DNA of 64,000 nt from a virus. Position numbers and translations under genes: made by a program. How positions within the stretch are numbered: the stretch's first letter is position 1; each line of letters begins with the position of its first letter. Where the stretch lies: IMG/VR virus record IMGVR_UViG_3300044716_000732, positions 1-64,000 of that record; one strand, written 5' to 3'. The notes beneath the pieces are model-generated. The model made no database searches. It was given only the letters and a program-made list of their open reading frames with translations, and was not told where the DNA came from. Shown one piece after another: positions 17,287 through 34,428 of this stretch.

Positions 17287-17554
17287 TTGATCATTTTGTA
17301 TGACAATACACCATTTGTATTGTCATACAAAACCCTTGGGGATTATTTTTGAAAATTACTTTAATTATATTAAAAATCATTAAAAAAGTAAAGAAAATTC
17401 TTTGTATTGTCATACAAAACTTGTATTGTCATACAAAACTAAATAAAAAACCATTTTTAATGTTTTGTATGACAGGAAAAATATTTAAAAAAATATATGG
17501 ACAGGGGAAAAAAGAGTTGATAGATTGGTGGCATCGAAACCAAACACCTATACA

Positions 17555-17743
17555 ATGATTAAAAAATACTACTTGGAATGCTTCGGAGAAAGAATTCCCT
17601 TGACAAGATTACAAGGAGAAACTATACAGGAGATGCTAATGAAAGACTTTGGTTGGTTGCTGAAACCAATCATGGAACAAACCAACGGCTTTCAAAAAGC
17701 CCTTGACAAACTAAACTGGAAAGTAATAGAAACTACCAAATGA
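17555..17743 (+). CDS. hypothetical early protein
   Basis: ORF after the TGGACA-17-TAGATT promoter. Confidence 0.6.
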   Translation: MIKKYYLECFGERIPLTRLQGETIQEMLMKDFGWLLKPIMEQTNGFQKALDKLNWKVIETTK

Positions 17744-18030
17744 AAAAAACACCAACACCCGATACAGAACAAACTCTGTTCTATACAGCAATCAATGCCC
17801 TGCGAATTGCAGGACAGGAGAAACTCGCCGATGACTTGGATCAGCGCATGGAGAACCTAATCAAGACTCCCAAGGTTGCCATCTTTGTTGATGGTGGAAT
17901 TGTCCAAGGAGTTCGTTCTAATATAGGACAAGAATTGGATGTAGAGATTGTGGATGCGGACAACGATCAAGATGGAGCGGATTGTCGTTGGGAAGATTTG
18001 GAAAATGAACTTGAATTTGGAAACTACTAA
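17740..18030 (+). CDS. hypothetical protein (VxIxVxGGxV family), paralog of 26480
   Basis: KVAIFVDGGIVQGV...LDVEIVDAD. Confidence 0.7.
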   Translation: MKKTPTPDTEQTLFYTAINALRIAGQEKLADDLDQRMENLIKTPKVAIFVDGGIVQGVRSNIGQELDVEIVDADNDQDGADCRWEDLENELEFGNY

Positions 18031-18076
18031 TATGGGAGACTCTCATCAAAACTGGATAGAAACAAAACCAAACCAA

Positions 18077-18280
18077 ATGAAAATCAAACAAGCAATCAAA
18101 GAACTACAAGGACTCGAAAAACAAGGAGTGAAGAATATCATCCTTGCCTTTTGGGAAGCCAAAGATTTTGATAGAGACGAGGACAAATCTTGGGTTGAGG
18201 ATGTGGAGATATTAGACGATAGTTTCGACTGGTCTTCCACACATGATGACTTGAACAACTTTATGGAAAGTTTGAAATAA
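18077..18280 (+). CDS. hypothetical acidic protein
   Basis: ORF with AAACCAAA leader. Confidence 0.6.
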   Translation: MKIKQAIKELQGLEKQGVKNIILAFWEAKDFDRDEDKSWVEDVEILDDSFDWSSTHDDLNNFMESLK

Positions 18281-18621
18281 TAAACCAAATGGAAAATAAT
18301 ACACTTGCAGAACTCGTAGGATTGCTATCACAGGCAATCGACATCATTCGCAATCATGGAGCAGAAGATGATGCGAACTATATTGAAACCCAAATGGAAA
18401 ATACAATCCGATACTACAAATTAGAAAAAGAACAGAATAGTTAAAATGAAATACAAACTTATTGACATAGAGGACGAATCCTCTAACGAATGGAGTGAAC
18501 CTGTCACCAAGGAAGAAGCCTTGGTGTATATTCAAGAATGGAACGAAGAGATGGGAACAAACTATAACTCTATTACGGAGTTCAACGAAAAAGAACAATA
18601 CTGGAAATGGGAGGAAGCAAA

Positions 18622-19071
18622 ATGAAATTTTACGGAGACAAAGGACACAACCCTAAAGTTGTAGAAAGATTCAATCGAATTGCAAAACATTTCGATGTAA
18701 CCGAACTTCCAGAACTTTTAGAGTCTTGGATGGACAATGGAGACATGGAATCCTTTATAGATATGTTGACAGAAAGATTCTATTCCAATTTCAATGAGTA
18801 TGTGATTGAATACAACATTCGTTCTCTCTGTGGAACGAAAGCATATTCAGCAGTCATCATCGACAAAAAAGAATTTGGATCAGATTTTGAGGATATGCTT
18901 TCCTACACAACCCATGAGGTGAAAGAAGATGGTTCTGTTTATTATCTGGAACAGGACTTGGAAGGAAGACGAGCAGATAAAGGCAACCAAGGCGTAATCT
19001 ATGATCGGGCATGGGTTCGATCACCAAAGGAAGGAAAAGAATTTCTTCGATACCTCGAAAGCAACCTCTAA
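18622..19071 (+). CDS. hypothetical protein
   Basis: ORF with GGAGG upstream. Confidence 0.65.
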   Translation: MKFYGDKGHNPKVVERFNRIAKHFDVTELPELLESWMDNGDMESFIDMLTERFYSNFNEYVIEYNIRSLCGTKAYSAVIIDKKEFGSDFEDMLSYTTHEVKEDGSVYYLEQDLEGRRADKGNQGVIYDRAWVRSPKEGKEFLRYLESNL

Positions 19072-19085
19072 ACACATTACAACAC

Positions 19086-19262
19086 ATGACATCACCATCA
19101 GAAAAACACATAGAACAAGAACACGAAATTATCAAGTATGCCCTCACTTTTCTCTTGTCAAACTTGGAGGATGAGGTTATAGAAGATATGTCAGAATACA
19201 TTGGGACAAGTGATCCCGATGAAGTAGAGAAACTAATAACAGACATAGTTGAAAATTACTGA
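19086..19262 (+). CDS. hypothetical acidic protein
   Basis: ORF in operon. Confidence 0.55.
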   Translation: MTSPSEKHIEQEHEIIKYALTFLLSNLEDEVIEDMSEYIGTSDPDEVEKLITDIVENY

Positions 19263-19373
19263 ACGATGAAAAAAATCCTTGACATCTTTTCAAGAATAAA
19301 AGAATATCTGGACTTCATTGATGGTAAAACATCATACATAACCAAACCAAAAACCAAATAGAAAGAAAACCAA

Positions 19374-19850: not shown

Positions 19851-19877
19851 ACAATAAACCAAATAGAAAGAAATAGT

Positions 19878-20958: not shown

Positions 20959-21007
20959 AAATAGATATTTGAAATTTTAGATTGCGGGTTAGATAAATAG
21001 TTTATAT

Positions 21008-21089
21008 TGCAGAGTGTGAGAAGTGGTATCTCAGTGCGCTCATAACGCACCGCCCTTGCGCCTCGAAGGTTCGATTCCTTCCTCTGCTA
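21008..21089 (+). tRNA. tRNA-Met(CAT), atypical: 1:72 mismatch, 14-nt variable region, no CCA
   Basis: GCAGAG/CTCTGC acceptor, GTGCG-CTCATAA-CGCAC, GAAGG-TTCGATT-CCTTC. Confidence 0.8.
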
Positions 21090-21594
21090 TTTTGTTTTTG
21101 ATGATGGGTGATATTTTATTTTCAAATGCTTCATCTATAAGTTGCTTCTGTTTTTTTCTGCTGCTTATTTCTGAAACATTTATAACGAAAAAAGAATATT
21201 CCATATCAGATAATTCTTTAAATTTTAAACTATCTTTAAGTTTAACATCTTCAAGTTTTTTTTCTCCGAAAATAGGAAAATAATGAATAGGCCCATTGAC
21301 TTCTATGGCTAAAGATATTTCTGGAATGCAAATATCTATTTCAAGACCAGAAGATAATGTTTGCCTATCTGATTGAATGATCTTTAAAAAAGAGAATTCA
21401 TTCTCTATTTTAGAATAAAGATAATCTTCTGGAAAACTTATATTTCTTTTACAACCTTTATTGATATGGAAATTTTTATTAAAATATCTCATACGACAAG
21501 ATTTACTACAAAATCTTTTATTGTGTTTGGTTTTATTGTGTTTTCTATCTTTTAGAGGTTTAAAAAGTATATTACATTCTGGACAATTTATCAT
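21040..21594 (-). CDS. PD-(D/E)XK (Vsr/DUF559-like) putative homing endonuclease with N-terminal zinc finger
   Basis: CPEC...FCSKSC; LEIDICIPEISLAIEVNGPIHY; antisense within the tRNA cluster. Confidence 0.75.
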   Translation of the reverse strand: MINCPECNILFKPLKDRKHNKTKHNKRFCSKSCRMRYFNKNFHINKGCKRNISFPEDYLYSKIENEFSFLKIIQSDRQTLSSGLEIDICIPEISLAIEVNGPIHYFPIFGEKKLEDVKLKDSLKFKELSDMEYSFFVINVSEISSRKKQKQLIDEAFENKISPIIKNKIAEEGIEPSRRKGGAL

Positions 21595-21643
21595 ATGCTT
21601 ATGAATACTTACACTTACCATAAGCATTGTTTGAAATTTTTAT

Positions 21644-21726
21644 TCCTCGTTAGTAGAATTGGTAAATACACGGGACTGTTAATCCCGCGCAGCAATGCAC
21701 TCTTGGTTCAAGTCCAAGACGAGGAG
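21644..21726 (+). tRNA. tRNA-Asn(GTT) with long variable arm
   Basis: TCCTCGT/ACGAGGA; CGGGA-CTGTTAA-TCCCG; V-arm GCA-GCAA-TGC; G73. Confidence 0.9.
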
Positions 21727-21746
21727 CATCTTACAAAAGATAAAAA

Positions 21747-21776
21747 GGTTCTCGATGAGCCAGATAAAAAAATCGA
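21747..21776 (+). ncRNA. H-type pseudoknot element, copy 2
   Basis: GGTTC TCGAT GAGCC ... ATCGA (compensatory change relative to copy 1). Confidence 0.6.
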
Positions 21777-21785
21777 AAATATCTC

Positions 21786-21814
21786 TTGACCTTTTTAGAA
21801 ACAGGTGATAAGAT
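21786..21814 (+). promoter_or_regulatory. sigma70-type promoter for the second tRNA block
   Basis: TTGACC-17bp-TAAGAT with extended TG. Confidence 0.65.
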
Positions 21815-21892
21815 GGTGGAAGATTAGTAAAGGTTATCTGAACCTTGTAAAAACAATCAGAAAAGATTTTTGATAGAATTTGTATATTGTCT

Positions 21893-21978
21893 GACGATAT
21901 GGTGTAATGGCAGCCACAAGGGTCTTAAAAACCCTTGCTCGTAAGAGCGTGAGAGTTCGAGTCTCTCTATCGTCACCA
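21893..21978 (+). tRNA. tRNA-Leu(TAA)
   Basis: GACGATA/TATCGTC-A-CCA; AGGGT-CTTAAAA-ACCCT; long V arm. Confidence 0.95.
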
Positions 21979-21988
21979 GTTTTAAAAA

Positions 21989-22082
21989 GGGAGGTTAGTG
22001 TAATTGGAAGCACCGACAGACTTATAATCTGTGTTCCATAGATGTTGGACGAGCATGGGTTCGATTCCCATACCTCCTTCCA
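21989..22082 (+). tRNA. tRNA with TAT anticodon (nominal Ile), long variable arm, U73
   Basis: GGGAGGT/ACCTCCT-T-CCA; ACAGA-CTTATAA-TCTGT; ATGGG-TTCGATT-CCCAT. Confidence 0.85.
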
Positions 22083-22105
22083 CTTTGTAAATAGTTAATT
22101 TAGAC

Positions 22106-22178
<73 letters not shown>

Positions 22179-22184
22179 GATTTT

Positions 22185-22260
22185 GTATCGGTGGCGCAAT
22201 GGATAGCGCAAGCGGTTTCTACCCGTTAGGTTGGGGGTTCAAGTCCCTCCCGATACGCCA
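22185..22260 (+). tRNA. tRNA-Arg(TCT)
   Basis: GTATCGG/CCGATAC-G-CCA; AGCGG-TTTCTAC-CCGTT. Confidence 0.95.
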
Positions 22261-22645
22261 ACTACGTATTTCCCCCCATTTTATTTTCTCCCCCATCGAA
22301 TATCTTGTTCTTCTATGAAAACAAGAATCGCACTTCATCTTTGTTGTTTGATACGCAAGCCTAAAAATTGGAAATTTTATGTTTGCGGAATAGCAAGAGA
22401 ATTCTTTAAAAAATAAAAGTTCTTAGTTTTGTATGACAATAGAAATAAACCTTGACAGAAATCAAAAACTTGATCTCAGAGTTTTGTATGACAAAAGAAA
22501 AAAACCTTGACAAAAAAATTTCTGTTGATCTAAAAGTTTTGTATGACAATAGAAAAAAATAAAAATAATTCTTGCACTACATAGAAACCTATGAGAGAGT
22601 GATTGCGTTCAAACGAACAAGAAACAAACCAACCAAACCAAACCA

Positions 22646-24643
22646 ATGATTATTCAAGATAAAGAAACCACTATCGAGCAGATCGGAACAATTCAAGACG
22701 AGGCGCAATTCAAGATGCGGAATAGCCAGAAGGCATTCCAGATTCTTTCCAGTCTGTATTCCGATAAACCTCTCGCAATCGTTCGTGAACTCGGTTGCAA
22801 TGCAATGGATTCCCACATTGCTTCTGGTCAACCCAATCTTCCATTTGCGGTTCATATTCCAAATACTTTAGAACCTTGGTTGACAATCCAAGATTTCGGC
22901 ACAGGCATCTCCCATGAGAATATCTACGAAATCTATTCGGTATATTTCGCCAGCACAAAAACCAACACCAACACCCAAGTTGGTATGCTCGGTCTTGGTA
23001 GCAAGTCTCCCTTCTGCTATACGGACAACTTCACGATCACTTCGATTCACAATCAAGTCAAGCGTATCTACAATGCTTACTTCAATCAGACTGGTATGCC
23101 CACAATCTCTCTGGCATCACAGGAGAATACGAAGGATGCAAACGGAGTCGCAATTCAGATTCCAATTAAGAACTCTGACATTGGAAACTTCCACGCTGCT
23201 GTCTTCAAGGCATTCCGTTTCTTTGATGTCAAGCCAATCATCACAGGTGATTCTATTAACTGGACAGACAAGGCAAACTTTGAGGGAACATTCTGGAAAA
23301 GCTATTCCAATCTCAATAGTTCTTATGCTGTCATGGGGGGAGTCACATATCCTATCGACATATACAAAGTCGATGCTGACCACTACGACATCGTTCGCAA
23401 AGCAGGACTGGTGATTCACTTCAACATTGGGGAACTCGATGTCACTCCTTCCCGCGAATCCCTCATGTATCACGATTGGGTTGTCAAGGCAATCAACGAC
23501 AAAATTGCTCTTGTCAAGAAGGATTTCGTTACCAAGGTTGAAGATCAAATCAAGAACTCACCGAACCTTCTGGATGCGGTGAAGGCACTCTACCTCTTGA
23601 GCAACCAATGGAGTTTCCTCAATTCCACTTTGATTAACGGAAAGGTATTGTGGAACAAGGTCGAGATCACCGATCCTCGAAAATCAATCAAAGCTATCTG
23701 TCAAGATACATTCCAATCTCTTTCTAAAACAAGATGGGGAAGGTCAAAAATCGCTGTATCTGGATATGCGGATTTGAGCAACAATGCTCTCTGGTATTAC
23801 GATGACCTCAAACGAGGATCACATAAACGAGTGACAACCTTCATTCGTGGACATTCCAATTCGGATATTTCAATCAATCTGGTGGATGAAAAGTCGATGA
23901 AGGATTTGATCAAATCTGGATTCCCTGCATCCACATTCATTCCAACTTCCACTCTCCCTGCCATTGCAAGTGGTAGCAGAAAAGGAAGCATCAAGAACAG
24001 CAAGCCAAAAGGATTTATCAATCTCTACTCTATGGGTTCTACATATCAGTCCTCTTGGGAATCCAATAGCTTCGACCTCGCTACTGGCACAGCACCCAAG
24101 TATTATGTTGTCAAGGATGTTTCTACTTGGAAGTTTGACCGCATGGAACTCAACACAACCGATGGTAAAAAACTGATGACGATTGAAAACAAGTCAACTC
24201 TAAATGATTTCTGTCAGTATGCAGGAATAAGCATTGACGATGTTCGCATGGTAGCAAAAAACAATGCGAAATTCCTTGACACACTTGGAAGCACCAACCT
24301 CGCAGATGTTGTCAAGAAAAAACAACCCAAACTTTCTTGGGACACAATTCAGATTGCAAAGCATATCGAATTTAGAACAGCACTCAATGTATCGAAGAAT
24401 AGTTTGTATTCCAAAATCTCCGACACAAATCCATTCAAGATTTTTGTTGACAGCATTCTTGAAATCAAGAAGGAGATCGGAAAACTGGAAAATGTCCTCC
24501 GACATATTTCTTCCGAGGAACGAAAAAATGTTTTGACATATCCTTCAAAGATGGTAGAGTTATTTTATCTCTCCTGTGAAAGTTGGCAGGTGGGAGTCGA
24601 GATGACGCTTAATGCGATTCTCGAAACAGAGAAAACCAACTAA
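22646..24643 (+). CDS. rIIA: rIIA protein (GHKL/HATPase N-terminal domain)
   Basis: LYSDKPLAIVRELGCNAMDSH, DFGTGI, STK, GMLGLGSKSPF, LDVTPSRESL; directly upstream of rIIB. Confidence 0.92.
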   Translation: MIIQDKETTIEQIGTIQDEAQFKMRNSQKAFQILSSLYSDKPLAIVRELGCNAMDSHIASGQPNLPFAVHIPNTLEPWLTIQDFGTGISHENIYEIYSVYFASTKTNTNTQVGMLGLGSKSPFCYTDNFTITSIHNQVKRIYNAYFNQTGMPTISLASQENTKDANGVAIQIPIKNSDIGNFHAAVFKAFRFFDVKPIITGDSINWTDKANFEGTFWKSYSNLNSSYAVMGGVTYPIDIYKVDADHYDIVRKAGLVIHFNIGELDVTPSRESLMYHDWVVKAINDKIALVKKDFVTKVEDQIKNSPNLLDAVKALYLLSNQWSFLNSTLINGKVLWNKVEITDPRKSIKAICQDTFQSLSKTRWGRSKIAVSGYADLSNNALWYYDDLKRGSHKRVTTFIRGHSNSDISINLVDEKSMKDLIKSGFPASTFIPTSTLPAIASGSRKGSIKNSKPKGFINLYSMGSTYQSSWESNSFDLATGTAPKYYVVKDVSTWKFDRMELNTTDGKKLMTIENKSTLNDFCQYAGISIDDVRMVAKNNAKFLDTLGSTNLADVVKKKQPKLSWDTIQIAKHIEFRTALNVSKNSLYSKISDTNPFKIFVDSILEIKKEIGKLENVLRHISSEERKNVLTYPSKMVELFYLSCESWQVGVEMTLNAILETEKTN

Positions 24644-24675
24644 AACAAACCAAGTAGTAAATAGAAAATAATAGT

Positions 24676-25650
24676 ATGGACAATACAACCACACAAGCAG
24701 CAGTCATCATCACAGGTAGCGGCAAGATCGCCGCTACCATCAACGGACAATCCTACACGATTGACACCGATCACCCGAAATACCAACTGGCACTCGATTC
24801 GGTTCGTAACAAGAAATGGAATCGTTTTGTCGATCTGGTCAACATCAGCAAGCAGGTTCAAGAATACTTTGAGGGAACGGATGCAGAGATCAAAGATGGT
24901 TCAATCAACTATCATGGTCAGATCATTCACAACACTCTCACAAAGCGCATTCTCTCCTTCATGCGTGAGGGTCTTCCCCATGAACCACTCTTGAACTTCT
25001 TCAAGAACCTCATGGACAATCCAAGCAAGCGAGCAGTAGATGAACTCTACGACTTCCTTGAAGCAGGAGAACTCCCAATCACCGAGGATGGTCACTTCCT
25101 CGCCTTCAAGAATGTTCGATCCAATTACTTCGACATTCATTCTGGCAAGTTCGACAACTCTGTGGGCAAGGTATGCGAGATGCCTCGCAATGGAGTTGAC
25201 GAGGACAAGGAACGCACCTGTTCCTATGGACTCCACTTCTGTTCGATCAAGTATCTTCCTCACTTCTCCGATGGGGAGAATGGCAAGACAATGATCGTCA
25301 AGATCAATCCCCGCGATGTAGTGGCGATTCCAGCAGACTACGAGAACACCAAGGGTCGCACTTGCCGATACGAAGTAATTGCAGAATACAAAGATGACTG
25401 GCGTTCTAAACTCAATCGGAATGAATCTGGTTGGGACTCCGAACTCTATTCCTCCGATGGTGGAGACTATGAGATTGACGAACTGGATGAGCTTGACGAG
25501 AACGAGAACGAGAACGATTGCTCCTTCTCCAACGATTGCGATGAGAACCATTGCTTCTGTCAAGACAAAGGTTATGGCTACAAACCAAGTGGTCACAAGT
25601 TCCACAATGTTCGTGGACAAGACGGAAAGTTTGTCAAGAAAAATTGGTAA
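24676..25650 (+). CDS. rIIB: rIIB protein
   Basis: NPSKRAVDELYDFL, ITEDGHFLAFK, CSYGLHFCS, VKINPRDVVAIP..Y...KGRTCRYEV. Confidence 0.92.
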   Translation: MDNTTTQAAVIITGSGKIAATINGQSYTIDTDHPKYQLALDSVRNKKWNRFVDLVNISKQVQEYFEGTDAEIKDGSINYHGQIIHNTLTKRILSFMREGLPHEPLLNFFKNLMDNPSKRAVDELYDFLEAGELPITEDGHFLAFKNVRSNYFDIHSGKFDNSVGKVCEMPRNGVDEDKERTCSYGLHFCSIKYLPHFSDGENGKTMIVKINPRDVVAIPADYENTKGRTCRYEVIAEYKDDWRSKLNRNESGWDSELYSSDGGDYEIDELDELDENENENDCSFSNDCDENHCFCQDKGYGYKPSGHKFHNVRGQDGKFVKKNW

Positions 25651-25711
25651 GGTGGTTGGTCAAGGCGAGAGGGGTGGTTCCCTCTCGCCAAACCACATAA
25701 GAAATATCAAT

Positions 25712-26179: not shown

Positions 26180-26181
26180 TT

Positions 26182-26367
26182 ATGAAACATATCGCAACAC
26201 TCACTCTCATCCTCTTCAAAGAACAAAACCTCTACGCATATGAGTATGATGACCAGAACGGGAATATGCAGATCGAATATGGATTCACATCAGTAGGGGA
26301 TGCTCTCAACGGAGCATTCAAAAGGCTAAAGACTTTCACGGTCTTGCCTGATGTAGAGTCAAGGTAA
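26182..26367 (+). CDS. hypothetical protein
   Basis: ORF in operon. Confidence 0.55.
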   Translation: MKHIATLTLILFKEQNLYAYEYDDQNGNMQIEYGFTSVGDALNGAFKRLKTFTVLPDVESR

Positions 26368-26479
26368 TTTTCTTTTGTCATACAAAACTATGGCTACAAA
26401 GAAACGGTTGACTCGAAAAAAGCCAACCAATATGGTAGTGGTTCAAACTAAAACGAAACCTCAACTTATTATAAATGCA

Positions 26480-26653
26480 ATGAGTTTAAAACAGAAAGTC
26501 ACGATACATGTAAGCGGTGGAAGGGTCGAGGATATTGTCAAGGAGAATTGTCCAGAATTGAACATAGAGGTTCATGACTACGATATAGGAGACACTGAAG
26601 ATAACCTGCACCAAGACGAGAAAGGAAAAAACTTTCTATGTTTCGAGTTCTAA
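26480..26653 (+). CDS. hypothetical protein, paralog of 17740
   Basis: KVTIHVSGGRVEDI...LNIEVHDYD. Confidence 0.6.
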   Translation: MSLKQKVTIHVSGGRVEDIVKENCPELNIEVHDYDIGDTEDNLHQDEKGKNFLCFEF

Positions 26654-26892
26654 CAATTGGAATATCCTTGACATTGATTGGATGCACCACAGGAAGCAAG
26701 TATAGGTATATTGAAAACCATTATACGAATGTTCAATCCCCTGTTGAATATCCAGTATATGTGGAAACACCAGTCTATAGAGAAAGACCAGTATATCACT
26801 ACGATTCCCGAAGAGCAACCATGGCGGATCTTGGAAAAGCAATGGGAGAAAAAATGCTAAGAAAAATGAGAGCCGCATACAATGAAAATTAA
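26638..26892 (+). CDS. putative lipoprotein
   Basis: hydrophobic N-terminus ending LIGC. Confidence 0.55.
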   Translation: MFRVLTIGISLTLIGCTTGSKYRYIENHYTNVQSPVEYPVYVETPVYRERPVYHYDSRRATMADLGKAMGEKMLRKMRAAYNEN

Positions 26893-27370
26893 TCCATATA
26901 AAATAGGAATGAACTTCTATATTATTCTAATTGTATTTGTTTTCACATTTTTCGGATGCAAAACATTTGAGAAATATGATGAACGAATGAAGATGAAAAA
27001 AATTGCAGAGAGTATCTGGAACACTCCAGACTTGACAAAGAACAAAAAATAATAGACAATAGTAATATGACACAAAATATAAAAACCAGATGGAATCATT
27101 TTGGAGCATCTATTATCTCTGCTTGTGAAGCAGGACATGATATGAGTATTCCATCTTTCCTATTTTTGGGAATCAAATCTTTCATCTTTAATAAGACATA
27201 TCAGTTTAATAGAACATCGTGTCGTAATAGAACATCGTGTTGCAATACCGCGCATGACACATATACACGCGAAGGAATGCCCATTGCAAAGAGGAAACCA
27301 CTAAAGAAGAAACCACTAAAGAAGAAACCACTAAAGAAAGTAAAGACAAAAATCAATTAGATTATTTTAT

Positions 27371-27625
27371 ATGATGAATACAATAGCACAACTACGACGA
27401 AGCGGATACAAGGTAAGGGTTCTACACTCTCGACCAAAGATGTCCATCCAAAAGATCGGTGGAGTAATGACCGAATACAATCCAAAGGGTGGGAATACAA
27501 TCATCGAGGTGACATCACCAGATGGTAGGAATGCAATAGGAGCCTCACAATGCTCCGAGAAAGAATCTTGGAACAGGAAGATGGGAAATCAAATTGCATT
27601 GGGCAGAGCAATGGCACAACTATAA
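27371..27625 (+). CDS. conserved phage protein (PKGG.T...CS....N.K.G..IALGRA family)
   Basis: family motif; terminator follows. Confidence 0.7.
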   Translation: MMNTIAQLRRSGYKVRVLHSRPKMSIQKIGGVMTEYNPKGGNTIIEVTSPDGRNAIGASQCSEKESWNRKMGNQIALGRAMAQL

Positions 27626-27639
27626 AATAGAAACAGAAT

Positions 27640-27678
27640 AAAAAGCGGTTGTATGTTTTGTCATACAACCGCTTTTTT
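27640..27678 (+). terminator. intrinsic terminator whose stem includes the TGTCATACAA motif
   Basis: AAAAAGCGGTTGTATG-TTTTGT-CATACAACCGCTTTTT. Confidence 0.8.
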
Positions 27679-27839
27679 GTCATACAAAACTTGTATTGTC
27701 ATACAAAACCCTCCCTGATAACAGAATACCTTTTGTATGACAAGAGAAAATTGTATTGTCATACAAAACCCAACCCCAAAAAAAATTTGAAAAAGTTCTG
27801 GACACTATTGGAGATTTGGTGTAGATTGGATTCTCAATT

Positions 27840-28037
27840 ATGAAAAAAGTAGAAACAGCAAAACAAATCCTAAAGGAAATCAATTCATACTCTGTCGAAA
27901 TTCGTTGCGGTTTCAAAGATGAAGTCAATAGGATGATGCAACATATTAAAACCAAATCATTTTTAAAACGATTGGAAGAATATATGAAGACATCTGATTA
28001 TGATGAATTGATTGCATGGGCAAGGAACTATCAATAA
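27840..28037 (+). CDS. hypothetical early protein
   Basis: ORF after TGGACA-17-TAGATT. Confidence 0.6.
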   Translation: MKKVETAKQILKEINSYSVEIRCGFKDEVNRMMQHIKTKSFLKRLEEYMKTSDYDELIAWARNYQ

Positions 28038-28045
28038 GTCCCACT

Positions 28046-28252
28046 ATGAGCGAAAACGACAACTCACAAATCGTATTGGGTATCGGAGTTATTCTATTTG
28101 CAATAGGATTGATTCTGATTACACCTTTTCTTCTCATCTGGTCTGTCAATGGATTGTTTGCTTTGGCAATTCAATACACATGGACGAACTGGTTCTATGC
28201 TCTGGTCATCATGCTTCTTGTTAGGGGAAGCGCATCATATACAAAAAAATGA
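28046..28252 (+). CDS. small membrane protein
   Basis: two hydrophobic segments. Confidence 0.65.
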   Translation: MSENDNSQIVLGIGVILFAIGLILITPFLLIWSVNGLFALAIQYTWTNWFYALVIMLLVRGSASYTKK

Positions 28253-28378
28253 AATCATTCATGGTCTATTGCACTCTGGAAACAGAGGAACCCTTCATGG
28301 TGGAAGCAGAAACATTAGAGGAAGCAAAGGATGAAGCACTCAAGGAACTCGGTTGGCACTTGATCGAAAGCGAAGACG

Positions 28379-28774
28379 ATGAAGAAGAAGATTCAATTTG
28401 AATATAATGATGGGGGAAGACATCGAGCAGGATTTAGTGACAAGGTTGGTGATTGCGTAACAAGATCAATTTCCATTCTATTTGGATTTGATTACTTGGA
28501 TGCTCACCAACAAGTCAACATTCTTTTGAAAAGATTCAGCGATGGAAACTCTCTGGTTCCAAATGGAATTACCAACTCGTCAACAAAAAAGTTGATGAAA
28601 CATTTCGGACTTGTTTGGAATCCCACGAATAGTTTTCTGGACATTCCAAGAAAAGGAAAAGTCATTTTGAATTTCCCTCATCATGTGTGTGCAGTCATTG
28701 ATGGAACAATCCATGACACGCATGACAACAGAAATAATTCAAATAGAATTTATGGGTTTTGGAAATTCAAATGA
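28379..28774 (+). CDS. conserved phage protein (NDGGR...GDCVTR...H..AVIDG..HDT; possible Cys-protease-like fold)
   Basis: family motifs. Confidence 0.7.
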   Translation: MKKKIQFEYNDGGRHRAGFSDKVGDCVTRSISILFGFDYLDAHQQVNILLKRFSDGNSLVPNGITNSSTKKLMKHFGLVWNPTNSFLDIPRKGKVILNFPHHVCAVIDGTIHDTHDNRNNSNRIYGFWKFK

Positions 28775-28984
28775 ATTTTCAAAGCGGATGGGTTTTGTAT
28801 GACAGAAGAAAAACCTGTTGACAGAAACAAAAAAGTTGATCTCAGAGTTTTGTATGACAGGAGAAAAAAATAAAACTATTTCATTTTTTTCTATTGACTC
28901 TGAAACGAATTGGATTTAGAGTAGGGATAGTTAGATGAATGGTTCATCTGACGAAACAAACCACATAAAAGAAAGACTACTACT

Positions 28985-30019
28985 ATGGCACATATGATTG
29001 AAGAAAACATCGACCTCGTTTATTCCGTTGAAGGAACCGAATGGCATGGACTGGCACAAGTCCGCGAGGAGATCACCGAAACTGAGTTCGCTACTCTCTC
29101 CCATGAGATCATCGAATCACCTGTCACTTGTCAAGTTGAGGGACAAACTATCGCACTTCCCAACCACAAAATCCTTGTGGCAGATATGCGCCAGTCTCGT
29201 CCTGACTTGGAAGCGGACAAGCAGTTCGTTCCACTTCATGTTCCCAAGACTGGTTACAAGGTCATCAATAATCGTGAGGTGATCGAGTGCATGAAGGAAT
29301 CATTTGCTGGATTGGATGTTAAAATCACTACCGCTGGCACTCTGGAAGGTGCGAAGAAGTTCTTCGTATCGGTTGACATTGGTGACTCTGACCTCATCAT
29401 CAACAAGGACAGCTTCAAGGCTTATGTGAACTTCATCACTGGTCATGATGGCACTCTGGCGATGACTGCTTATGATAGTGTAATCCGAATCGTCTGCATG
29501 AACACGCTGATGGCAAGCCGTCAAGCCGCTGGCGAGGTTGGATTCTCGGTCTATCATACCAAGAATGCAGACTTGGCAATGAAGAACCTTCCCGAATTGT
29601 TCAACGCTATTCTCAAAGGACGCGCTAACTTGAAGGAAGTGATGGAGTATCTGGAGAGCAACAAGTGCGACCACAATGATGCTCTGGCAATGGCAGCAGG
29701 TTACTTCTGCTTAGAGACAGACAAAGCGGAACTCTCCACTCGCGCCATGAATGCCGCCCAAGGTATCGCAACCTTGTTCAGCAGGGGCATTGGTAACAAA
29801 GGCGAGACTCTGTATGATCTGGCTAACGGAGCAACAGAATACTATACCAGCGGAGAAGGAACGGGCAAGGGTAAGACTTCTCTCGCGGATCGAACATATC
29901 GTTCAGTCATGGGTAGTGCAGCAACTCACAAAGAAGCGTTTGTGGCAATGCTGGCAAATGAAGATCGTAGGAAAGATGCCCTGCGACTTGGCAAGCAAGC
30001 TCTCGCACTTGCAAGCTAA
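28985..30019 (+). CDS. DUF932/DUF945-like phage/plasmid protein
   Basis: MAH...WHGL, GHDG, IRIVCMNT, HTKN, YDLANGATEY. Confidence 0.85.
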   Translation: MAHMIEENIDLVYSVEGTEWHGLAQVREEITETEFATLSHEIIESPVTCQVEGQTIALPNHKILVADMRQSRPDLEADKQFVPLHVPKTGYKVINNREVIECMKESFAGLDVKITTAGTLEGAKKFFVSVDIGDSDLIINKDSFKAYVNFITGHDGTLAMTAYDSVIRIVCMNTLMASRQAAGEVGFSVYHTKNADLAMKNLPELFNAILKGRANLKEVMEYLESNKCDHNDALAMAAGYFCLETDKAELSTRAMNAAQGIATLFSRGIGNKGETLYDLANGATEYYTSGEGTGKGKTSLADRTYRSVMGSAATHKEAFVAMLANEDRRKDALRLGKQALALAS

Positions 30020-30033
30020 AGAGGTATAAACAA

Positions 30034-30064
30034 AACCCCCACTCGAAAGAGTGGGGGTTTTGTT
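30034..30064. terminator. bidirectional terminator with GAAA tetraloop
   Basis: CCCCACTC-GAAA-GAGTGGGG flanked by A and T tracts between convergent genes. Confidence 0.85.
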
Positions 30065-30069
30065 ATCTA

Positions 30070-30555
30070 TTACTTTGTATTGTATTGTTTTACTTTATTT
30101 CCTTTAGATAAATTTTCTTTCCACCATAAAGGCTGTAGATTTTTATAGTGAAAGCATTTTTTTTGTTGTTCTGGATCGGTAAGATCAAAAGAAGAACAAG
30201 GTATAATATGATCTATATGCCATCCATGATTTCCATGATTTTCCCATGACATTCCTTCTTTGAATTGAGACTCTATGTGTGATCTTGCGTCTTCTAAAGT
30301 TCCACCCAAAAGATCCATCGTGTTACATGATTTGATCGACTTTTGTTCTTTCAAAACTCTTAACATTCTATGTCTTAATAATTCTCTCATTTTGAAGTCT
30401 GGATCGTTCCTTTTTCTGTTTCTTTGATATGCGTTTATTTTGTCTCTATTATTATCTCTATATCGTTTTGCTCTAATTAGAATTTTCTCTTTATTGTTTT
30501 CGTAGTTTTTATAGTAAGATTTCAATCTTTGTTGTTTTCTTTTTTCGGTGTCCAT
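30070..30555 (-). CDS. HNH homing endonuclease (WHIDHI..C..FDL...CFHY.NLQPLW family), copy 1
   Basis: motif; the true ATG is at 30555, and the longer ORF merely reads through regulatory repeats. Confidence 0.85.
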   Translation of the reverse strand: MDTEKRKQQRLKSYYKNYENNKEKILIRAKRYRDNNRDKINAYQRNRKRNDPDFKMRELLRHRMLRVLKEQKSIKSCNTMDLLGGTLEDARSHIESQFKEGMSWENHGNHGWHIDHIIPCSSFDLTDPEQQKKCFHYKNLQPLWWKENLSKGNKVKQYNTK

Positions 30556-30789
30556 ATATGTCCAATACTTATTATAGTATATTACAATATCACATAATTT
30601 ATTTCTTTTGTCATACAAAACCTGTTGCAATAGAACATCGTGTAAAAATAGAACATGGTGTTGCAATACCGCGAGTGCGTATGTGCGTATTGTCATACAA
30701 AACCATGAATTGTAGAGTTTTGTATGACGGAAAAAATAGTTGAAAATAGATATTGCAATAAAATCAAAATCAATTAGATTGAAAGTCCA

Positions 30790-30981
30790 ATGAAAGCAAT
30801 ACACTTCACAGCTAACAGCAATTGCCAAACCTATCCAACATCTCAAAGCAACCAAATCACGAAAGATTATTATCATTTTTTGGTTGGTGAAATCAATCGC
30901 AATGTTATTAAAAAAGTAGTTTGCAGAGTCGAAGATGATCGGTTTGGAAAAATTTCCCATTACTTGGTGTCCGAAAGATAA
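30790..30981 (+). CDS. hypothetical early protein (single-gene cassette)
   Basis: between a motif-promoter and a terminator. Confidence 0.55.
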   Translation: MKAIHFTANSNCQTYPTSQSNQITKDYYHFLVGEINRNVIKKVVCRVEDDRFGKISHYLVSER

Positions 30982-31043
30982 TCAACCTTTACAATAATCT
31001 CCCCACAGAATTATTCCAATATAATTATTGACTTGTAAAACAA

Positions 31044-31075
31044 AAAGAGGGAGTCGAAAGACTCCCTCTTTTTTT
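31044..31075 (+). terminator. intrinsic terminator GGGAGTC-GAAA-GACTCCC, copy 1
   Basis: the same hairpin recurs near 32297 and 34717. Confidence 0.85.
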
Positions 31076-31333
31076 GTCATACAAAACTGGTAGAATTGTA
31101 TTGTCATACAAAACCCTCTATCACAGCACATTGCATTTCGTATGACAAGACAAACTTGTATTGTCATACAAAACCTCCTCCCCCCCCATAACCCCCTGTT
31201 CTTGAGTTCTTTGGGTTTTGTATGACAGGAAAAATAGTTGAAAATTTCTCTTCCAAAATAATCCAAATGGAATAACTTGGTTTCAGTCGAAAGCACGATG
31301 CCGACGATGACCAAACCAAAAACCACTACTACC

Positions 31334-32284
31334 ATGTTTAATAAAAATACAGAGTTCAATATCAGCAAAGCACATTCCCGTTTCAAAGTAGCTCGCTCTA
31401 TCAAAGCGGATGGAAACCACAACAAAGTAATTCACTATCTTGGAGGGGTTTCTACCAAAACCCATTTCGAGGATTACTTCTCTAAAGAGAACACCACATT
31501 CGTTCGATATGAGATGGATAAATGTGATCGTCCTAATAATTATTGCCATGCTTGGAATATGGTTCTTTCTCCTGCTGATGCTCGTTACACATTCCACATG
31601 GAATTAACTAAAAAGACACCAGAGCAATATGGTTATTTTGTGAACGAAAATTTTTACACCGAGGTTCAAAAGTTCATGCAAGTCGAAGAAATAATTTGCA
31701 AAAAGAATTATTTCTGGATTGATTTGTGCGGAATGCCAAGTGATTCAAATATCTCCGAAATCAATGATTTTGTTAAATCTTACAATAATTTTGCGGAGGA
31801 AATCTATGTGACTTTTTTCTTGAATCCCAGAAAAGAAAAGGATGCTGCACAAGCAGTCAACCGATATGGCAAATCTCTCAAAGATAGAGCACGATCAGCT
31901 TGTGACACGCTCAAAGAAAAAATTTCTGTTGACATATATTCTTTCTCCGTGTTAGATATATACACCAACGGAAAAGCACCGATGGCAGTAATCAAAATGA
32001 AAAAGAAAATGAAAAAGACAAAAACCAAAATCAGCAAAAACCCAATCTGCAACTCTGAGAACTATGCTCTGATGCGCGACAAGGGATTCACCAACCTCGA
32101 AATCCAGACCATGTGGGGAGTGCCACAAATGGCAGTAGCCGCATATCAAGCATGGAACACGATGGGAGGGAAGACATGGAATGACCAGCAACGCGAACTC
32201 GAAACGATTCGCCTTGGCCGTCGAGTCTGCAAGAACACCATCACTCTGGACGATGAACACGATCCAGAAAATGGAATGATCTAA
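31334..32284 (+). CDS. hypothetical early protein
   Basis: 316-aa ORF bounded by a promoter and a terminator. Confidence 0.75.
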   Translation: MFNKNTEFNISKAHSRFKVARSIKADGNHNKVIHYLGGVSTKTHFEDYFSKENTTFVRYEMDKCDRPNNYCHAWNMVLSPADARYTFHMELTKKTPEQYGYFVNENFYTEVQKFMQVEEIICKKNYFWIDLCGMPSDSNISEINDFVKSYNNFAEEIYVTFFLNPRKEKDAAQAVNRYGKSLKDRARSACDTLKEKISVDIYSFSVLDIYTNGKAPMAVIKMKKKMKKTKTKISKNPICNSENYALMRDKGFTNLEIQTMWGVPQMAVAAYQAWNTMGGKTWNDQQRELETIRLGRRVCKNTITLDDEHDPENGMI

Positions 32285-32293
32285 ACCTCAACC

Positions 32294-32324
32294 GAGGGGA
32301 GTCGAAAGACTCCCCTCTTTTTTT
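32294..32324 (+). terminator. intrinsic terminator, copy 2
   Basis: GAGGGGAGTC-GAAA-GACTCCCCTC plus T tract. Confidence 0.85.
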
Positions 32325-32602
32325 GTCAACAGATATTTCTCTTGTCATACAAAACCCTCCATATTGTTTTGTCATACGAAACCATCCCAACTCCAAGAGC
32401 CAGAAATAGTTTTGTATGACAGAAGAAAAAAACCTTGACAGAAACAAAAAAGTTGATCTCCGAGTTTTGTATGACAGGAGAAAAAAATAAAAATTTTTGT
32501 TGCGGTGTTCGGTGATTGTGGTAGAGTGAATACATCTTCAAACGAGGATACGGAGCAAAGCCAGCCGATCAAGTGGCAAGGGGCGGAAATCCCCAAAACA
32601 AA

Positions 32603-33058
32603 ATGAACATCGCAGAAATCAAAAACATCCTGTCAACTCGCAAAGGTTCCAACCTCTCTGCCATCTTTGGCAAGGAACTCAAGACTCGCAAAGGAGTCAC
32701 CGATTGCGTGGAGAAAGTCACCTCCATCGTTGTGCGTGGTGGAATCGAATACGACAACCAGAAGGTTGTCATCGAAGGCAGGGAAGATGGCACATTGCCA
32801 TCGGAGAATGCAGGTCTTCCTTGGGGACAATGGGCTGAATATCCTTTCCACATTGAACACAAGGGGACTGATTATGTCCGCTTCTACTCTGCCAGCGGAA
32901 TCGCTTTTGAGCCAAAGGTGGAATACTACCTCAACGGAATCCTTGTGGATAAGGCACAAGTTCAACCACTCTGCCTCGCCAGCGAGTTTCCTAATCGTCA
33001 AGACGCACCTCTGGCGATGACGGTGAAAGCCGAGAATGTCAAGGCAATTATTATCTGA
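32603..33058 (+). CDS. conserved hypothetical phage protein
   Basis: GIEYDNQK...LPWGQW...HKGTDYVR; C-ending codon bias. Confidence 0.75.
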   Translation: MNIAEIKNILSTRKGSNLSAIFGKELKTRKGVTDCVEKVTSIVVRGGIEYDNQKVVIEGREDGTLPSENAGLPWGQWAEYPFHIEHKGTDYVRFYSASGIAFEPKVEYYLNGILVDKAQVQPLCLASEFPNRQDAPLAMTVKAENVKAIII

Positions 33059-33110
33059 TTCAATCGGGGGAGGGAAAATCGGTTCCCTCCCCCACAACCA
33101 AAAAATCAAA

Positions 33111-33260
33111 ATGAAAGCAATCACAAAAATCCTCTCGATCCTTTTTCCCTTCAAAGAACTCAACGGAAAGCCAAGCGTGTTCATTCAAGACACATGGCTG
33201 GAAAAGAATACTCGCCCATTGCAAGTCAAGGAATATCTCTGGCATCCTTCAAGAATTTAG
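33111..33260 (+). CDS. small hypothetical protein
   Basis: 49-aa ORF followed by a hairpin. Confidence 0.5.
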   Translation: MKAITKILSILFPFKELNGKPSVFIQDTWLEKNTRPLQVKEYLWHPSRI

Positions 33261-33509
33261 GTGGTGGTCGTCATAGCCGAGGGGGAGGTGTGGTAGCCTC
33301 CCCCTCATTTTTCTGTCAATAAAAAATTGTATTGTCATACGAAACTATTCTGATTGACATCGCAATTTGCGATACCAAAAGGTTTTGTATGACAGAAGAA
33401 AAAAAACTTGACAGAATCTTTTTTGTTGATCTCAGAGTTTTGTATGACAGGAGAAAAAGATAAAAATTTTTATTGCCATGTTCAATCGGTGTGATAAATT
33501 GATTGCCTT

Positions 33510-34154
33510 ATGACCGCACCTTACAAAACTGCCAAGCAAGCCGAAGCAATCACTCACTCTCTTTCGTCACCCTCGAAAATGCCTTGTCATGGATATTCAA
33601 CTCCAGCTTCTCGCTGTATTACTGGTGGCAAATTACGCAAGGTGGCAAATTCAATTTGCTCCGTGTGCTATGCCATGAAGGGTCGATATGTTTTTGACAA
33701 TGTTCTAAACGCAATGGAAAAACGATTCCAGTCTCTTTTCAATTCCAAGTGGGAAGACGCAATCGTTTTTCTGATTGGAAAGAAAGAGAAAAGCGGATTT
33801 TTTCGCTGGCATGATTCTGGCGATTTACAAGGCACTTGGCATTTGCAGAAAATTGTCAATGTTGCCAATCGTTTGCCAATGATCAAATTCTGGCTTCCAA
33901 CTCGTGAGATTTCAATCGTGAGCGATTGGGTGAATGCTGGCAATAAGATTCCCGACAATCTCACGATTCGCTTATCCGCTTTCATGCTGGATGGCCAGCC
34001 TCCGATTGCTGCTGCTAATCGCCTTGGCTTGTGCGTGAGCGGTGCAAGTGATACAGATTACAATTGTCCTTCGTCCAAGCAAGAGGGAAAATGCGGTGAT
34101 TGTCGCAATTGCTGGAACAAGGAAATCTTTCAGGTGAATTACAAAAAGCATTAA
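33510..34154 (+). CDS. gp88-like protein (Cys-rich, radical-SAM-related fold)
   Basis: SKMP...C.TG.KL...CSVCYA...FRWHDSGD...CGDCRNCW. Confidence 0.8.
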   Translation: MTAPYKTAKQAEAITHSLSSPSKMPCHGYSTPASRCITGGKLRKVANSICSVCYAMKGRYVFDNVLNAMEKRFQSLFNSKWEDAIVFLIGKKEKSGFFRWHDSGDLQGTWHLQKIVNVANRLPMIKFWLPTREISIVSDWVNAGNKIPDNLTIRLSAFMLDGQPPIAAANRLGLCVSGASDTDYNCPSSKQEGKCGDCRNCWNKEIFQVNYKKH

Positions 34155-34428
34155 GTGGTGACATAGGCAGAAGCGGACATCCAAAAGGGTGTCCGCTTTC
34201 TGCTGTCAAGAATTATTTGTATTGTCATACAAAACCAACCCCCTGTTTCCACAGCACTCCCTGTTTCCCTGCAACATCGTGTTGCAATGACACACGCACA
34301 GGCGCACACGCTCGCATTACACGCACAGGAGAAGGCGTGTGCTCATGTGTAGGCGTGTTTTGTATGACAGGAGAAATAGTTAAAATAGTTCTTGCGATTA
34401 GATTCTCCTGTGGTATCTTGATTGCCTT

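Follow-up and report, generated by a model that had tools for sequence, protein, structure and literature searches.

Genomic Setting

The DNA described here comprises the initial 64 kb of a virus contig that is 87,022 bp long (IMG/VR record IMGVR_UViG_3300044716_000732); these 64,000 nucleotides, with a G+C content of ~30%, are referred to below as the window. The rIIA/rIIB region of the window carries a short word, GTATGAC, that recurs on both strands in the spacers between small genes, and a gene in the same region encodes a 75-residue protein predicted to be of the ribbon-helix-helix (RHH) type. In this report, we describe the arrangement of the word, its replacement in close relatives, and the case for it being an operator read by a phage-encoded regulator.

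The contig is, as judged from its genes, a fragment of an uncultured T4-like phage related to the cyanomyoviruses. The contig encodes a virion protein that shares 67% identity with T4-like cyanomyovirus proteins, and a complete relative of 225,756 bp (G005) encodes a Gp23-type capsid protein (300 bits). The genome is estimated at ~200 kb because CheckV rated a 96-kb relative as 47% complete and G005 (226 kb) as 100% complete; G005 and these estimates for the relatives indicate that the contig is only part of a T4-like phage. No lysogeny module was seen, and the phage is presumably lytic. A megablast search of the 22-35 kb interval against 50,697 phage records returned a single 40-nt tRNA-like match, and thus no close isolated relative, and a tblastn search of isolated phages with rIIA returned nothing above 60% identity.

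The genes rIIA (22646-24643), rIIB (24676-25650), and a DUF932 gene (28985-30019) lie at the centre of the region of interest. The window also encodes two GP88-family proteins, several HNH endonucleases, RNA ligases (including a gp63-like one), and a denV-like glycosylase, together with eight tRNAs and one tmRNA identified with Rfam. About ten predicted early-gene units in this region carry copies of the motif.

The Repeated Word and Its Arrangement

GTATGAC occurs 39 times in the window when both strands are counted. The expected number is 4.6, and none of 100 dinucleotide-preserving shuffles reached 39 (largest value, 12). Thirty-six of the copies are located in spacers between genes, in the interval 16.4-34.8 kb, 16 in the forward and 20 in the reverse orientation; those at 4663, 14959, and 50944 lack the longer context and are as many as chance predicts. 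The full conserved word is the 13-mer GTTTTGTATGACA, carried by nearly every copy in the region. It is near-invariant, with 35 copies in the contig and 42 in the close relative G002, and its flanks vary. Many copies read TTGTATGACAATACAA, an inverted repeat with a 4-bp centre, and the bases after the word are partly conserved (..A.AA in the window and ATA.AA in G002). A search with Rfam gave nothing at the motif, the only hits in the window being the tRNAs and the tmRNA.

The spacers share one order of elements. The gene is followed by a G+C-rich hairpin and its T run; TGTCAA comes next and, 13 nt further on, a reverse copy of the motif, to which a second reverse copy is often added. Next come zero to two forward "upstream units" (the motif, with TTGACA 21 bp after the motif start) with a 55-bp period. 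The last element is one forward "proximal unit", which consists of the motif, 24 A/T-rich nt, TTGCnn, 16-17 nt, and TAnnnT. Every cassette is bracketed by a forward copy on its left and a reverse copy on its right. Only 8 of the 36 regional copies are promoter-proximal; the remaining 28 are not beside a promoter, many of them abut the preceding terminator, and they form arrays between each terminator and the next promoter. The spacing between copies is 19, 27, or 55 bp, and there are inverted doublets (17-21 bp within the doublet), three here and seven in the G002 locus.

The leftmost feature is a single reverse copy, TGTCATACAAAAC, at 16441-16453 (GTCATAC at 16442). An array of five copies follows on both strands at 17293-17474 (17298+, 17322-, 17409-, 17428-, and 17467+), in which 17298 and 17322 form an inverted doublet and 17467 is promoter-proximal, 31 bp from a forward promoter at 17498-17526 (TGGACA, 17-bp spacer, TAGATT). 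Ahead of rIIA, three forward copies (22431, 22486, and 22541; 22426-22548) are set 55 bp apart, the upper two with TTGACA at +21. The rIIA promoter on the forward strand at 22572-22600 (TTGCAC, 17-bp spacer, GAGAGT) is 31 bp from the motif at 22541, and the gene starts at 22646. Beyond rIIB, a single reverse copy at 26376-26388 ends 1 nt before an ATG at 26390, and a terminator-like hairpin made of motif-like sequence lies at 27640-27770 with five copies on both strands (27660-, 27679-, 27698-, 27735+, and 27758-), of which 27735 and 27758 are an inverted doublet. Upstream of the DUF932 gene, the forward copies 28797 and 28852 are followed by a promoter (28792-28922, + strand, for the whole); its boxes at 28894-28922 (TTGACT, 17-bp spacer, TAGAGT) begin 42 bp from the motif at 28852.

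To the right of the DUF932 gene, copies occur on both strands in each of the next five spacers. At 30609-30780, copies 30610-, 30692-, and 30722+ precede a forward promoter at 30753-30780 (TTGCAA, 16-bp spacer, TAGATT), 31 bp from 30722, with an ATG at 30790. At 31046-31278, a terminator hairpin is followed by copies 31076-, 31103-, 31140+, 31163-, and 31220+ and by a forward promoter at 31251-31278 (TTCCAA, 16-bp spacer, TAACTT), 31 bp from 31220. The spacer at 32294-32527 consists of a terminator with a T run (32294-32317), TGTCAA, 13 nt, copies 32344-, 32371-, 32414+, and 32469+, and a forward promoter at 32500-32527 (TTGCGG, 16-bp spacer, TAGAGT), 31 bp from 32469. At 33279-33500 are found a terminator (33279-33306), copies 33334-, 33387+, and 33442+, and a forward promoter at 33473-33500 (TTGCCA, 16-bp spacer, TAAATT), 31 bp from 33442; the ATG of a GP88-family gene at 33510 lies 9 nt past this -10 box. 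Copies 34224- and 34362+ at 34223-34419 precede a forward promoter at 34392-34419 (TTGCGA, 16-bp spacer, TATCTT), 30 bp from 34362, with an ATG at 34429. The last spacer holds a terminator at 34711-34740 and two reverse copies directly after it (34746- and 34765-; 34711-34777), and the forward promoter of the RHH gene at 34842-34896 is made up of GTCTGACA (34842-34849), TTGCCA (34869-34874), a 16-bp spacer, and TATTCT (34891-34896). The candidate regulator itself, the 75-residue RHH protein with an (AK)n tail, is encoded at 34961-35188 on the forward strand.

Other repeats were noted among the motif copies. The sequence CCCTGTTTCC occurs twice in two spacers, between the reverse and forward copies (34240-34300, 34778-34812, and 30623-30690); the palindrome TGCAACA-TCG-TGTTGCA is found close to 34283, and inverted repeats of a related type, TTGCAA...AGAACA, are found close to 30625. 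These may be sites for a second factor. Several cassette genes begin with a conserved GATTGCCTTATGAC(A/C) (33508-33516, 34427-34435, and metagenome loci), and TATGAC thus recurs at the start codon, ~66 bp after the TATGAC of the operator. In the block from 22000 to 36000, where the motif is dense, several 2-kb bins have a G+C content of 42-44%, while most of the remaining window is at 26-31%; the block looks like an island of differing composition.

Motif-Linked Promoters

A preliminary description of the locus had placed the last GTATGAC of an array at a fixed distance from degenerate -35 boxes. All eight distances were exact on recheck: 31 bp in six cases, 30 bp in one, and 42 bp in one, so that a fixed phase of three helical turns is kept, with the 42-bp promoter one turn farther out. 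An A-rich, UP-like tract had been reported between the two elements, and the 23-35 nt in question proved to be 74-92% A+T and 46-71% A. Each of the eight hexamers is followed 16-17 bp later by TAnnnT or GAnnnT. No copy of the motif overlaps the -35 box, the -10 box, or the start at any of these promoters. The distance from the motif to the ATG ranges from 67 to 133 nt, whereas that from the motif to the -35 box is constant.

The same description held that the -35 boxes are nonconsensus whereas most motif-free promoters use TTGACA. This applies only roughly, with TTGC at five of the eight motif-linked promoters and TTGACA at none. Motif-free promoters were listed from -10 boxes 5-12 nt before an ATG, which gave 21 entries outside the motif region; 11 of these have a TTG hexamer at 16-18 bp, namely TTGACA (4), TTGACT (2), TTGCAT (1), and others (4). 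The motif-linked core promoters are weaker than those elsewhere, with a TTGCnn -35 box, a 16-bp spacer (39 of 41 metagenomic cases, see below), and a TAnn(C/T/G)T -10 box.

In DNA this rich in A/T, generic scans were not above shuffled sequence (66 promoter-like sites versus 54 ± 8, and 18 terminator-like sites versus 14.6 ± 4.2), and the promoter calls therefore rest on conservation. They are also supported by the position of the -10 box, which in several units lies 9 nt before the ATG, similar to the 6-10 nt at motif-free promoters elsewhere on the contig. With the ATG 9 nt after the -10 box, the messages would be nearly leaderless. Many motif-free promoters at 42975-64588 and in the 64-87 kb part of the contig (TTGACA/TTGACT, 16-18 bp, TAnnAT) likewise end 6-10 nt before an ATG without a Shine-Dalgarno sequence, and much of the expression of this phage seems to be leaderless or nearly so.

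RNA sequence was available as contigs from one freshwater metatranscriptome run (X1), which shares 6% of the sampled words. Ten contigs matched at a likeness of at least 85%; such contigs cannot show transcript starts, and uncovered stretches carry no weight. One contig, with a depth of 11.1, covers 32546-32835, downstream of the predicted -10 box at 32522-32527, and is preceded by 23 letters that we take to be sequencing adapter. In one contig, a loose end before 32406 resembles, by eye, the 26.4-kb spacer of the window. These contigs are treated as weak hints only.

The downstream boxes bear on whether the word might itself be the promoter of a phage-specific polymerase or sigma factor, with the sigma-70-like sequences being incidental. 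The word is as invariant as such promoters are. However, 20 of the 36 copies face the preceding terminator, in the antisense direction to the gene upstream, and doublets in inverted orientation are frequent. The pattern TTGnnn, 16-bp spacer, TAnnnT is kept in 41 metagenomic contexts while the sequence between the boxes varies, and it is the distance to the -35 box rather than to the ATG that is constant. The position of the depth-11 RNA contig downstream of the predicted -10 box also argues against it, as a weak point. We regard this explanation as hardly credible.

Several known elements were compared with the motif and rejected. A Bacteroidetes -7 box, a sigma-54 -24/-12 element, a MotA box, a lambda CII site, a LexA box, and an extended -10 element, in their generally known forms, do not fit in spacing or sequence, and the palindrome of the motif is 2 bp shorter than that of CRP/FNR/NtcA sites. 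A pho box was set aside since the copies are not 11 bp apart (sites listed in PMC3465305).

Relatives and Metagenomic Contexts

The arrangement is retained in G002, a relative with 80-97% DNA identity that has 48 copies of GTATGAC in the homologous 16 kb. Seven of its eight proximal copies are 31 bp from the -35 box, and the eighth is 42 bp away. The 13-mer is unchanged even in a sub-lineage whose rIIA is only 39% and rIIB 62-64% identical. G002 has in addition a second repeat family of ~20 copies that contains GAATCCCAATTA and ACAGAATCCCAA.

A scan of metagenomes with a 19-mer recovered 63 loci on 37 contigs, and at least four copies were present on 29 of 38 contigs (including one phage-like contig from the genome collection). 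The full promoter pattern was found at an offset of 31 in 41 of 262 distinct 210-bp contexts and in no more than eight at any other offset from 8 to 61; related strains contributed many near-duplicates to the 262 contexts, and the units have a common ancestry. The -35 boxes of the 41 proximal units include TTGCAA (11), TTGCCA (7), TTGCAT (6), and TGGACA (5), and the spacer is 16 bp in 39 of them. The sequences between the -35 and -10 boxes and the downstream genes are unrelated, and the phase is therefore kept across paralogues and in the sub-lineage with 39% rIIA identity. TTGACA (at least five of six positions) peaks at an offset of 21, in 79 contexts, mostly at reverse copies that abut a terminator. 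That this TTGACA is a true promoter was rejected, since a -10 box at 16-18 bp accompanies it in only 1 of the 262 contexts at that offset. A scan of viral contigs with a 14-mer was too unspecific to be used (at least 118 single chance matches).

Not all close relatives use this word. In G001, a 40-kb fragment whose rIIA-rIIB DNA is 90% identical, the extended motif is absent, and the rIIA promoter (a single gene) is the consensus TTGACA-N17-TAGTAT. Its leader after the -10 box is homologous to that of the window, which fixes the position of the -10 box of rIIA here. Further relatives were found by searching with the GP88 and DUF932 proteins. G003 (30 kb; DUF932 94% and GP88 89% identical) and G004 (65 kb; 87% and 84%) contain GTATGAC at chance level (1 and 3 copies, respectively). 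They contain 58 and 33 copies of a second word, TGTAACAC, usually as ATGTAACACAATACA, and the layout is that of the window: terminators are followed by reverse copies, some copies form inverted doublets, and one copy is proximal. The proximal copy precedes TTGnnn or TGGACA by 29 bp in eight cases and by 30 bp in seven, and the promoters have a 16-17 bp spacer and mostly TATTCT as the -10 box. At orthologous promoters the core is kept and the word is swapped. In G005 a third word, TTTGTAAAACAAAG, occurs 16 times in the homologous region. Most of these copies form doublets, and they are located next to GP88 and rIIA/rIIB (190.9-195.7, 205.7, and 210.3 kb).

A host protein, such as a global regulator recruited by the phage, would be allowed by the preliminary description, and the half-site TGTCAT/ATGACA resembles the pho-box halves of Escherichia coli PhoB as listed in PMC3465305. 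A shared host factor would not, however, predict three words among close relatives from similar samples, and the copies are 19, 27, or 55 bp apart rather than 11 bp. When one genome per prokaryote species was scanned with the 19-mer, only single chance matches were obtained, together with one phage-like contig binned into a metagenome-assembled genome. A host factor is thus considered very unlikely.

Exchange of Cassettes at the Motif

When the contig is compared with G002, the breaks fall at motif or promoter sequence. The segment at 30793-32364 is replaced in G002, an extra unit is present there at 34481-35078, and inverted doublets are present in one and absent from the other. The HNH or endonuclease-VII-like genes at 30070-30560 (-) and 35447-36052 (-) are not at the same places in G002 and look like free-standing homing endonuclease insertions. 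Identical sequence from the -35 box through the spacer was found with differing -10 boxes and genes among the 41 units. A larger variety of flanks is connected at motif joints than at a control point 150 nt away (39 of 161 and 50 of 164 flank clusters versus 22 of 237 and 6 of 259), although these figures are inflated by paralogy.

These observations bear on a different account, in which the motif is mainly a recombination or mobility element, either a homology patch or a terminal inverted repeat through which cassettes could be excised, inverted, or exchanged, like the promoter early stem-loop (PeSL) elements of T4-type phages, repetitive extragenic palindromic doublets (REPINs), or miniature inverted-repeat transposable elements (MITEs), and its position at promoters is a by-product of cassette ancestry. 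The bracketing of cassettes by forward copies on the left and reverse copies on the right, the location of the breaks, the excess of joined flanks over the control (with the inflation just noted), and the RNA contig that by eye joins 26.4-kb spacer sequence to the motif at 32406 are all consistent with it. Homology patches, however, need neither an invariant 13-mer nor an exact 31-bp phase. The arrays were not found to be accompanied by a recombinase or transposase, and no motif lies near the TnpB-like gene at 73.4 kb of the contig. That the word is replaced wholesale from one lineage to the next, and a DNA-binding protein with it, argues for recognition by a protein. We consider recombination as the main role to be quite unlikely, although both roles can coexist. 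In REPINs, inverted doublets go with a cognate transposase (RAYT or TnpA) in the genome; such doublets occur here, and no Y1 transposase was found by Pfam or PHROGs in the 87-kb contig, itself part of the genome.

A Candidate Regulator

The protein encoded at 34961-35188 reads MARPLKTK...VRFALSLD...RGISKSDIIRAAL...(AK)n. It matches the Pfam RHH_1 profile with 22.2 bits (cut-off, 20.5), and the AlphaFold model has the strand-helix-helix fold, with a mean predicted local distance difference test (pLDDT) score of 68.7 and values of 87-90 over residues 21-50. The best Foldseek match is CopG (probability 0.97, root-mean-square deviation 1.3 Å over 38 residues), and the other top matches are CopA, ORF56, Arc, omega, ParG, and AmrZ. 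The sole match in a phmmer search against PDB sequences was to a designed repeat protein.

In all contigs that bear the motif and extend across this place, the same neighbouring gene is followed by a homologue. Two forms, 45-49% identical with an invariant R18, occur in these contigs. A small Lys/Ala-tailed protein is encoded at the corresponding place in G003, G004, and G005. There is exactly one such protein each in the present genome (G0), G003, G004, and G005 and none in the G001 fragment; the G002 homologue, whose shorter tail is under the threshold of this screen, was found separately. By hhalign, the G004 and G005 proteins are related to the RHH family of the window with a probability of 70-72%.

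The strand before helix A was compared between the classes. It reads SVRFALSLD or VVFRLPLNLD in phages with GTATGACA, VLNLR(L/V) in those with TGTAACAC, and MVTFRCE with the third word; the strand is therefore kept within a motif class and changes between classes, in a test that could have failed. With the register assigned by us from the hydrophobic alternation before helix A, the residues predicted to face the DNA would be R-A-S and R-P-N with GTATGACA, V-N-R with TGTAACAC (G003 and G004), and M-T-R with the third word. The word at the promoter of the RHH gene does not change with the lineage: GTCTGACA is found 27 bp before its -35 box in both the first and the second lineage (window 34842-34849; G003 at ~19.4 kb).

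NikR, an RHH protein, binds GTATGA-N16-TCATAC (PMC7055735). This precedent shows only, and by analogy, that an RHH strand can read a GTATGA half-site. We judge the chances that the candidate protein binds the motif to be evenly balanced.

Proposed Function of the Arrays

That the motif is an operator appears somewhat probable. The reading as a whole, in which it would be the operator of a phage-encoded, sequence-specific regulator, may be right or wrong with about equal probability. The rIIA/rIIB region consists of self-contained cassettes. In each of them, one to a few genes are served by a weak promoter of the sigma-70 type and an intrinsic terminator, alongside an array of GTTTTGTATGACA copies in both orientations. 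According to the proposal, the RHH protein with the Lys/Ala tail at 34961-35188 would be the most likely regulator. One operator, a site of 16-20 bp, would be centred at ~-60 to -61 of each promoter, and the A/T-rich, UP-like tract between it and the -35 box would lie where the C-terminal domain of the alpha subunit docks. The docking positions of this domain are textbook knowledge from work on CAP and UP elements. The bound protein could then help RNA polymerase in the class I manner and compensate for the TTGCnn -35 box, the 16-bp spacer, and the poor -10 box. The remaining copies would hold more protein and serve as homology patches for cassette exchange.

The geometry agrees with this scheme. 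With a 16-bp spacer and a predicted transcript start, the proximal GTATGAC starts near -65, and the predicted 16-20 bp site is centred at ~-60 to -61, with one case at 42 bp from the -35 box. RHH-dependent activation is favoured because the core elements are weak and the motif-free relative has a consensus promoter; that binding activates rather than represses, as promoter weakness and position suggest, is nevertheless put forward tentatively, with a little less than even confidence. The preliminary description had proposed that a phage- or host-encoded activator drives these promoters. The fixed phase, the A/T-rich tract, the weak core promoters, and the consensus promoter in G001 support the activator part. 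The motif is not simply an upstream activator site, however, with 28 of 36 copies away from promoters, 20 inverted, and many abutting a terminator. Of the two origins allowed, that in the phage fits, as the word changes from lineage to lineage together with an RHH protein that the phage encodes.

A number of observations weigh against the proposal. The large majority of copies that are not at promoters, and the TTGACA at +21 (79 contexts) that almost never has a -10 box, are not explained by an activator. Repression is the usual action of known RHH proteins. As the eight promoters are paralogues derived from one conserved cassette, their constant spacing is partly inherited. In G005 the doublet is ~50 bp or more upstream of the -35 box and not near -61. 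The assignment of the protein has its own difficulties: all Foldseek structural matches have an E value of 0.35 or worse, the B, C, and D forms are below the Pfam RHH_1 cut-off (19.1 and 15.6 bits, no match for G004, and 14.7 bits), and hhalign aligned the strand in another register. Two of the three predicted DNA-facing residues are not the same in sub-lineages A and B (R-A-S versus R-P-N), which have the motif in common. There are only three motif classes and the RHH gene is linked to the region, so that another linked gene could be the reader.

Alternatively, the same RHH-operator pair may act negatively or architecturally. RHH protein made early would coat the arrays through cooperative binding and the Lys/Ala tail, like Arc/Mnt in P22 or omega on heptad arrays, and would later shut off or insulate the promoters. 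In favour of this view, the RHH family consists mostly of repressors, and each cassette has arrays of 2-5 sites, in both orientations, on its flanks. The inverted doublets resemble dimer-of-dimers operators, copies abut terminators, and the sites in G005 are too far upstream for class I geometry. On the other hand, no copy overlaps the -35 box, the -10 box, or the start at the eight promoters, and these promoters are weak where the motif-free relative has a consensus promoter. The strict rule of one site at 31 bp is not required by occlusion or spreading, and the RHH gene's own promoter is without the lineage word at the standard place. We consider this negative or architectural role to be rather unlikely.

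If the operator-regulator pair proposed above is extended to all of the relatives, T4-like lytic phages would carry swappable "specificity modules" in which the RHH protein and the word are replaced together between relatives whose genes are 84-94% identical. This generalization is speculative, and we think it doubtful. If true, a word copied 35-60 times over about ten early promoters would amount to a private transcription code for each lineage, with a heteroimmunity-like incompatibility in co-infection and operator copies that double as joints for cassette exchange.

Other Features of the Contig

The tmRNA (54286-54696) scores 100 bits, and four tRNAs of a six-tRNA cluster at 21007-22260 are unusually long (84-94 nt). 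The open reading frame at 8706-14696 encodes 1996 residues with a von Willebrand A domain and probably has internal nucleotide repeats. The sequences AGCACTCCAACC and CCAGTACTCCTAC are among the most frequent k-mers. A small protein at 38481-38951 has weak matches to ADP-ribosyltransferase families (PARP, E value 1e-4, under the cut-off). Beyond the window, the contig has a TnpB/IS605 OrfB-like gene at 73356-74615, of which G002 has two copies, and at 81444-81932 a homologue of the Thoeris inhibitor Tad3 (E value 2e-39).

Significance and Comparison with Known Systems

Little is known about how transcription is controlled in T4-like phages other than the T-even group, and the cyanophage-type relatives are reported to have neither MotA nor AsiA. 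The locus pairs a 75-residue protein with a 13-base word, and two further natural pairs serve as specificity controls. If the RHH link is true, it would show how a large lytic phage puts an accessory block of early genes under one private regulator and how dozens of sites can all be converted from one code to another. It would also show that PeSL-like shuffling joints can double as operators, and orthogonal operator/regulator parts would be obtained. A literature search with the motif strings found no phage paper, and one for RHH proteins with cyanophages or early promoters found nothing relevant among the matches listed. In these searches, neither the combination proposed here from sequence comparison nor a wholesale exchange of both word and protein among close relatives was found in print.

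The nearest structural counterparts are the PeSLs of T4-type phages (PMC2839356 and PMC4122927). As described there, PeSLs are repeated units in which a stem-loop terminator and a sigma-70-like promoter are joined to an A/T-rich tract, they lie between small genes in the hyperplastic early region of T4-like phages, and they are joints where close relatives gain, lose, and swap genes. All of this is seen here. Terminator, promoter, and A/T-rich tract occur together (e.g., at 32294-32317, 33279-33306, and 34711-34740 for the terminators), and rIIA/rIIB, RNA ligase, and denV-like genes mark a hyperplastic region. Breakpoints of the PeSL type are seen in the G002 indels and replacements, the doublets, and the mosaic joints, the last with the caveat of paralogy. 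PeSL promoters are described as having the sigma-70 consensus, with no separate operator described (PMC2839356 and PMC4122927). The promoters here are off-consensus, with TTGCnn, TGGACA, or TTCCAA as the -35 box, while consensus promoters are found elsewhere on the contig. Unlike PeSLs, the units here add 1-5 invariant 13-mers in both orientations, one of them in phase with the -35 box, and the 13-mer is lineage-specific.

At class I promoters, an activator such as CAP bound at -61.5 contacts the C-terminal domain of the alpha subunit. The cassettes resemble these in having a site ~60-61 bp upstream of the predicted start, a variant one turn farther out, an A/T-rich tract, and a weak -35 box. 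They differ in that the probable binder is an RHH protein and not a member of the CRP family, and activation is here a proposal. The palindrome TGTAT-N4-ATACA is 2 bp shorter than those of CRP, FNR, and NtcA, and extra copies lie 55 bp apart upstream and inverted beside terminators.

RHH regulators with repeated operators include CopG, Arc and Mnt of P22, and omega of pSM19035. These share with the present system a small strand-helix-helix protein and short words in direct and inverted repeat. The half-sites of NikR (PMC7055735) share GTATGA with the motif. The Lys/Ala tail and the variable site spacing (17-21 bp in doublets; 19, 27, and 55 bp) are unlike the known RHH systems, as are the location of the sites upstream of the core promoters without overlap and the pairing of one candidate regulator with about ten promoters in a lytic phage.

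The immunity specificities of the lambdoid phages are repressor/operator pairs that differ between close relatives. The similarity to the present case lies in near-identical genes that are accompanied by different operator words and different candidate DNA-binding proteins. Unlike the lambdoid phages, these phages are T4-like and presumably lytic, and with 35-60 copies of the word at about ten promoters, a switch in specificity would need concerted replacement.

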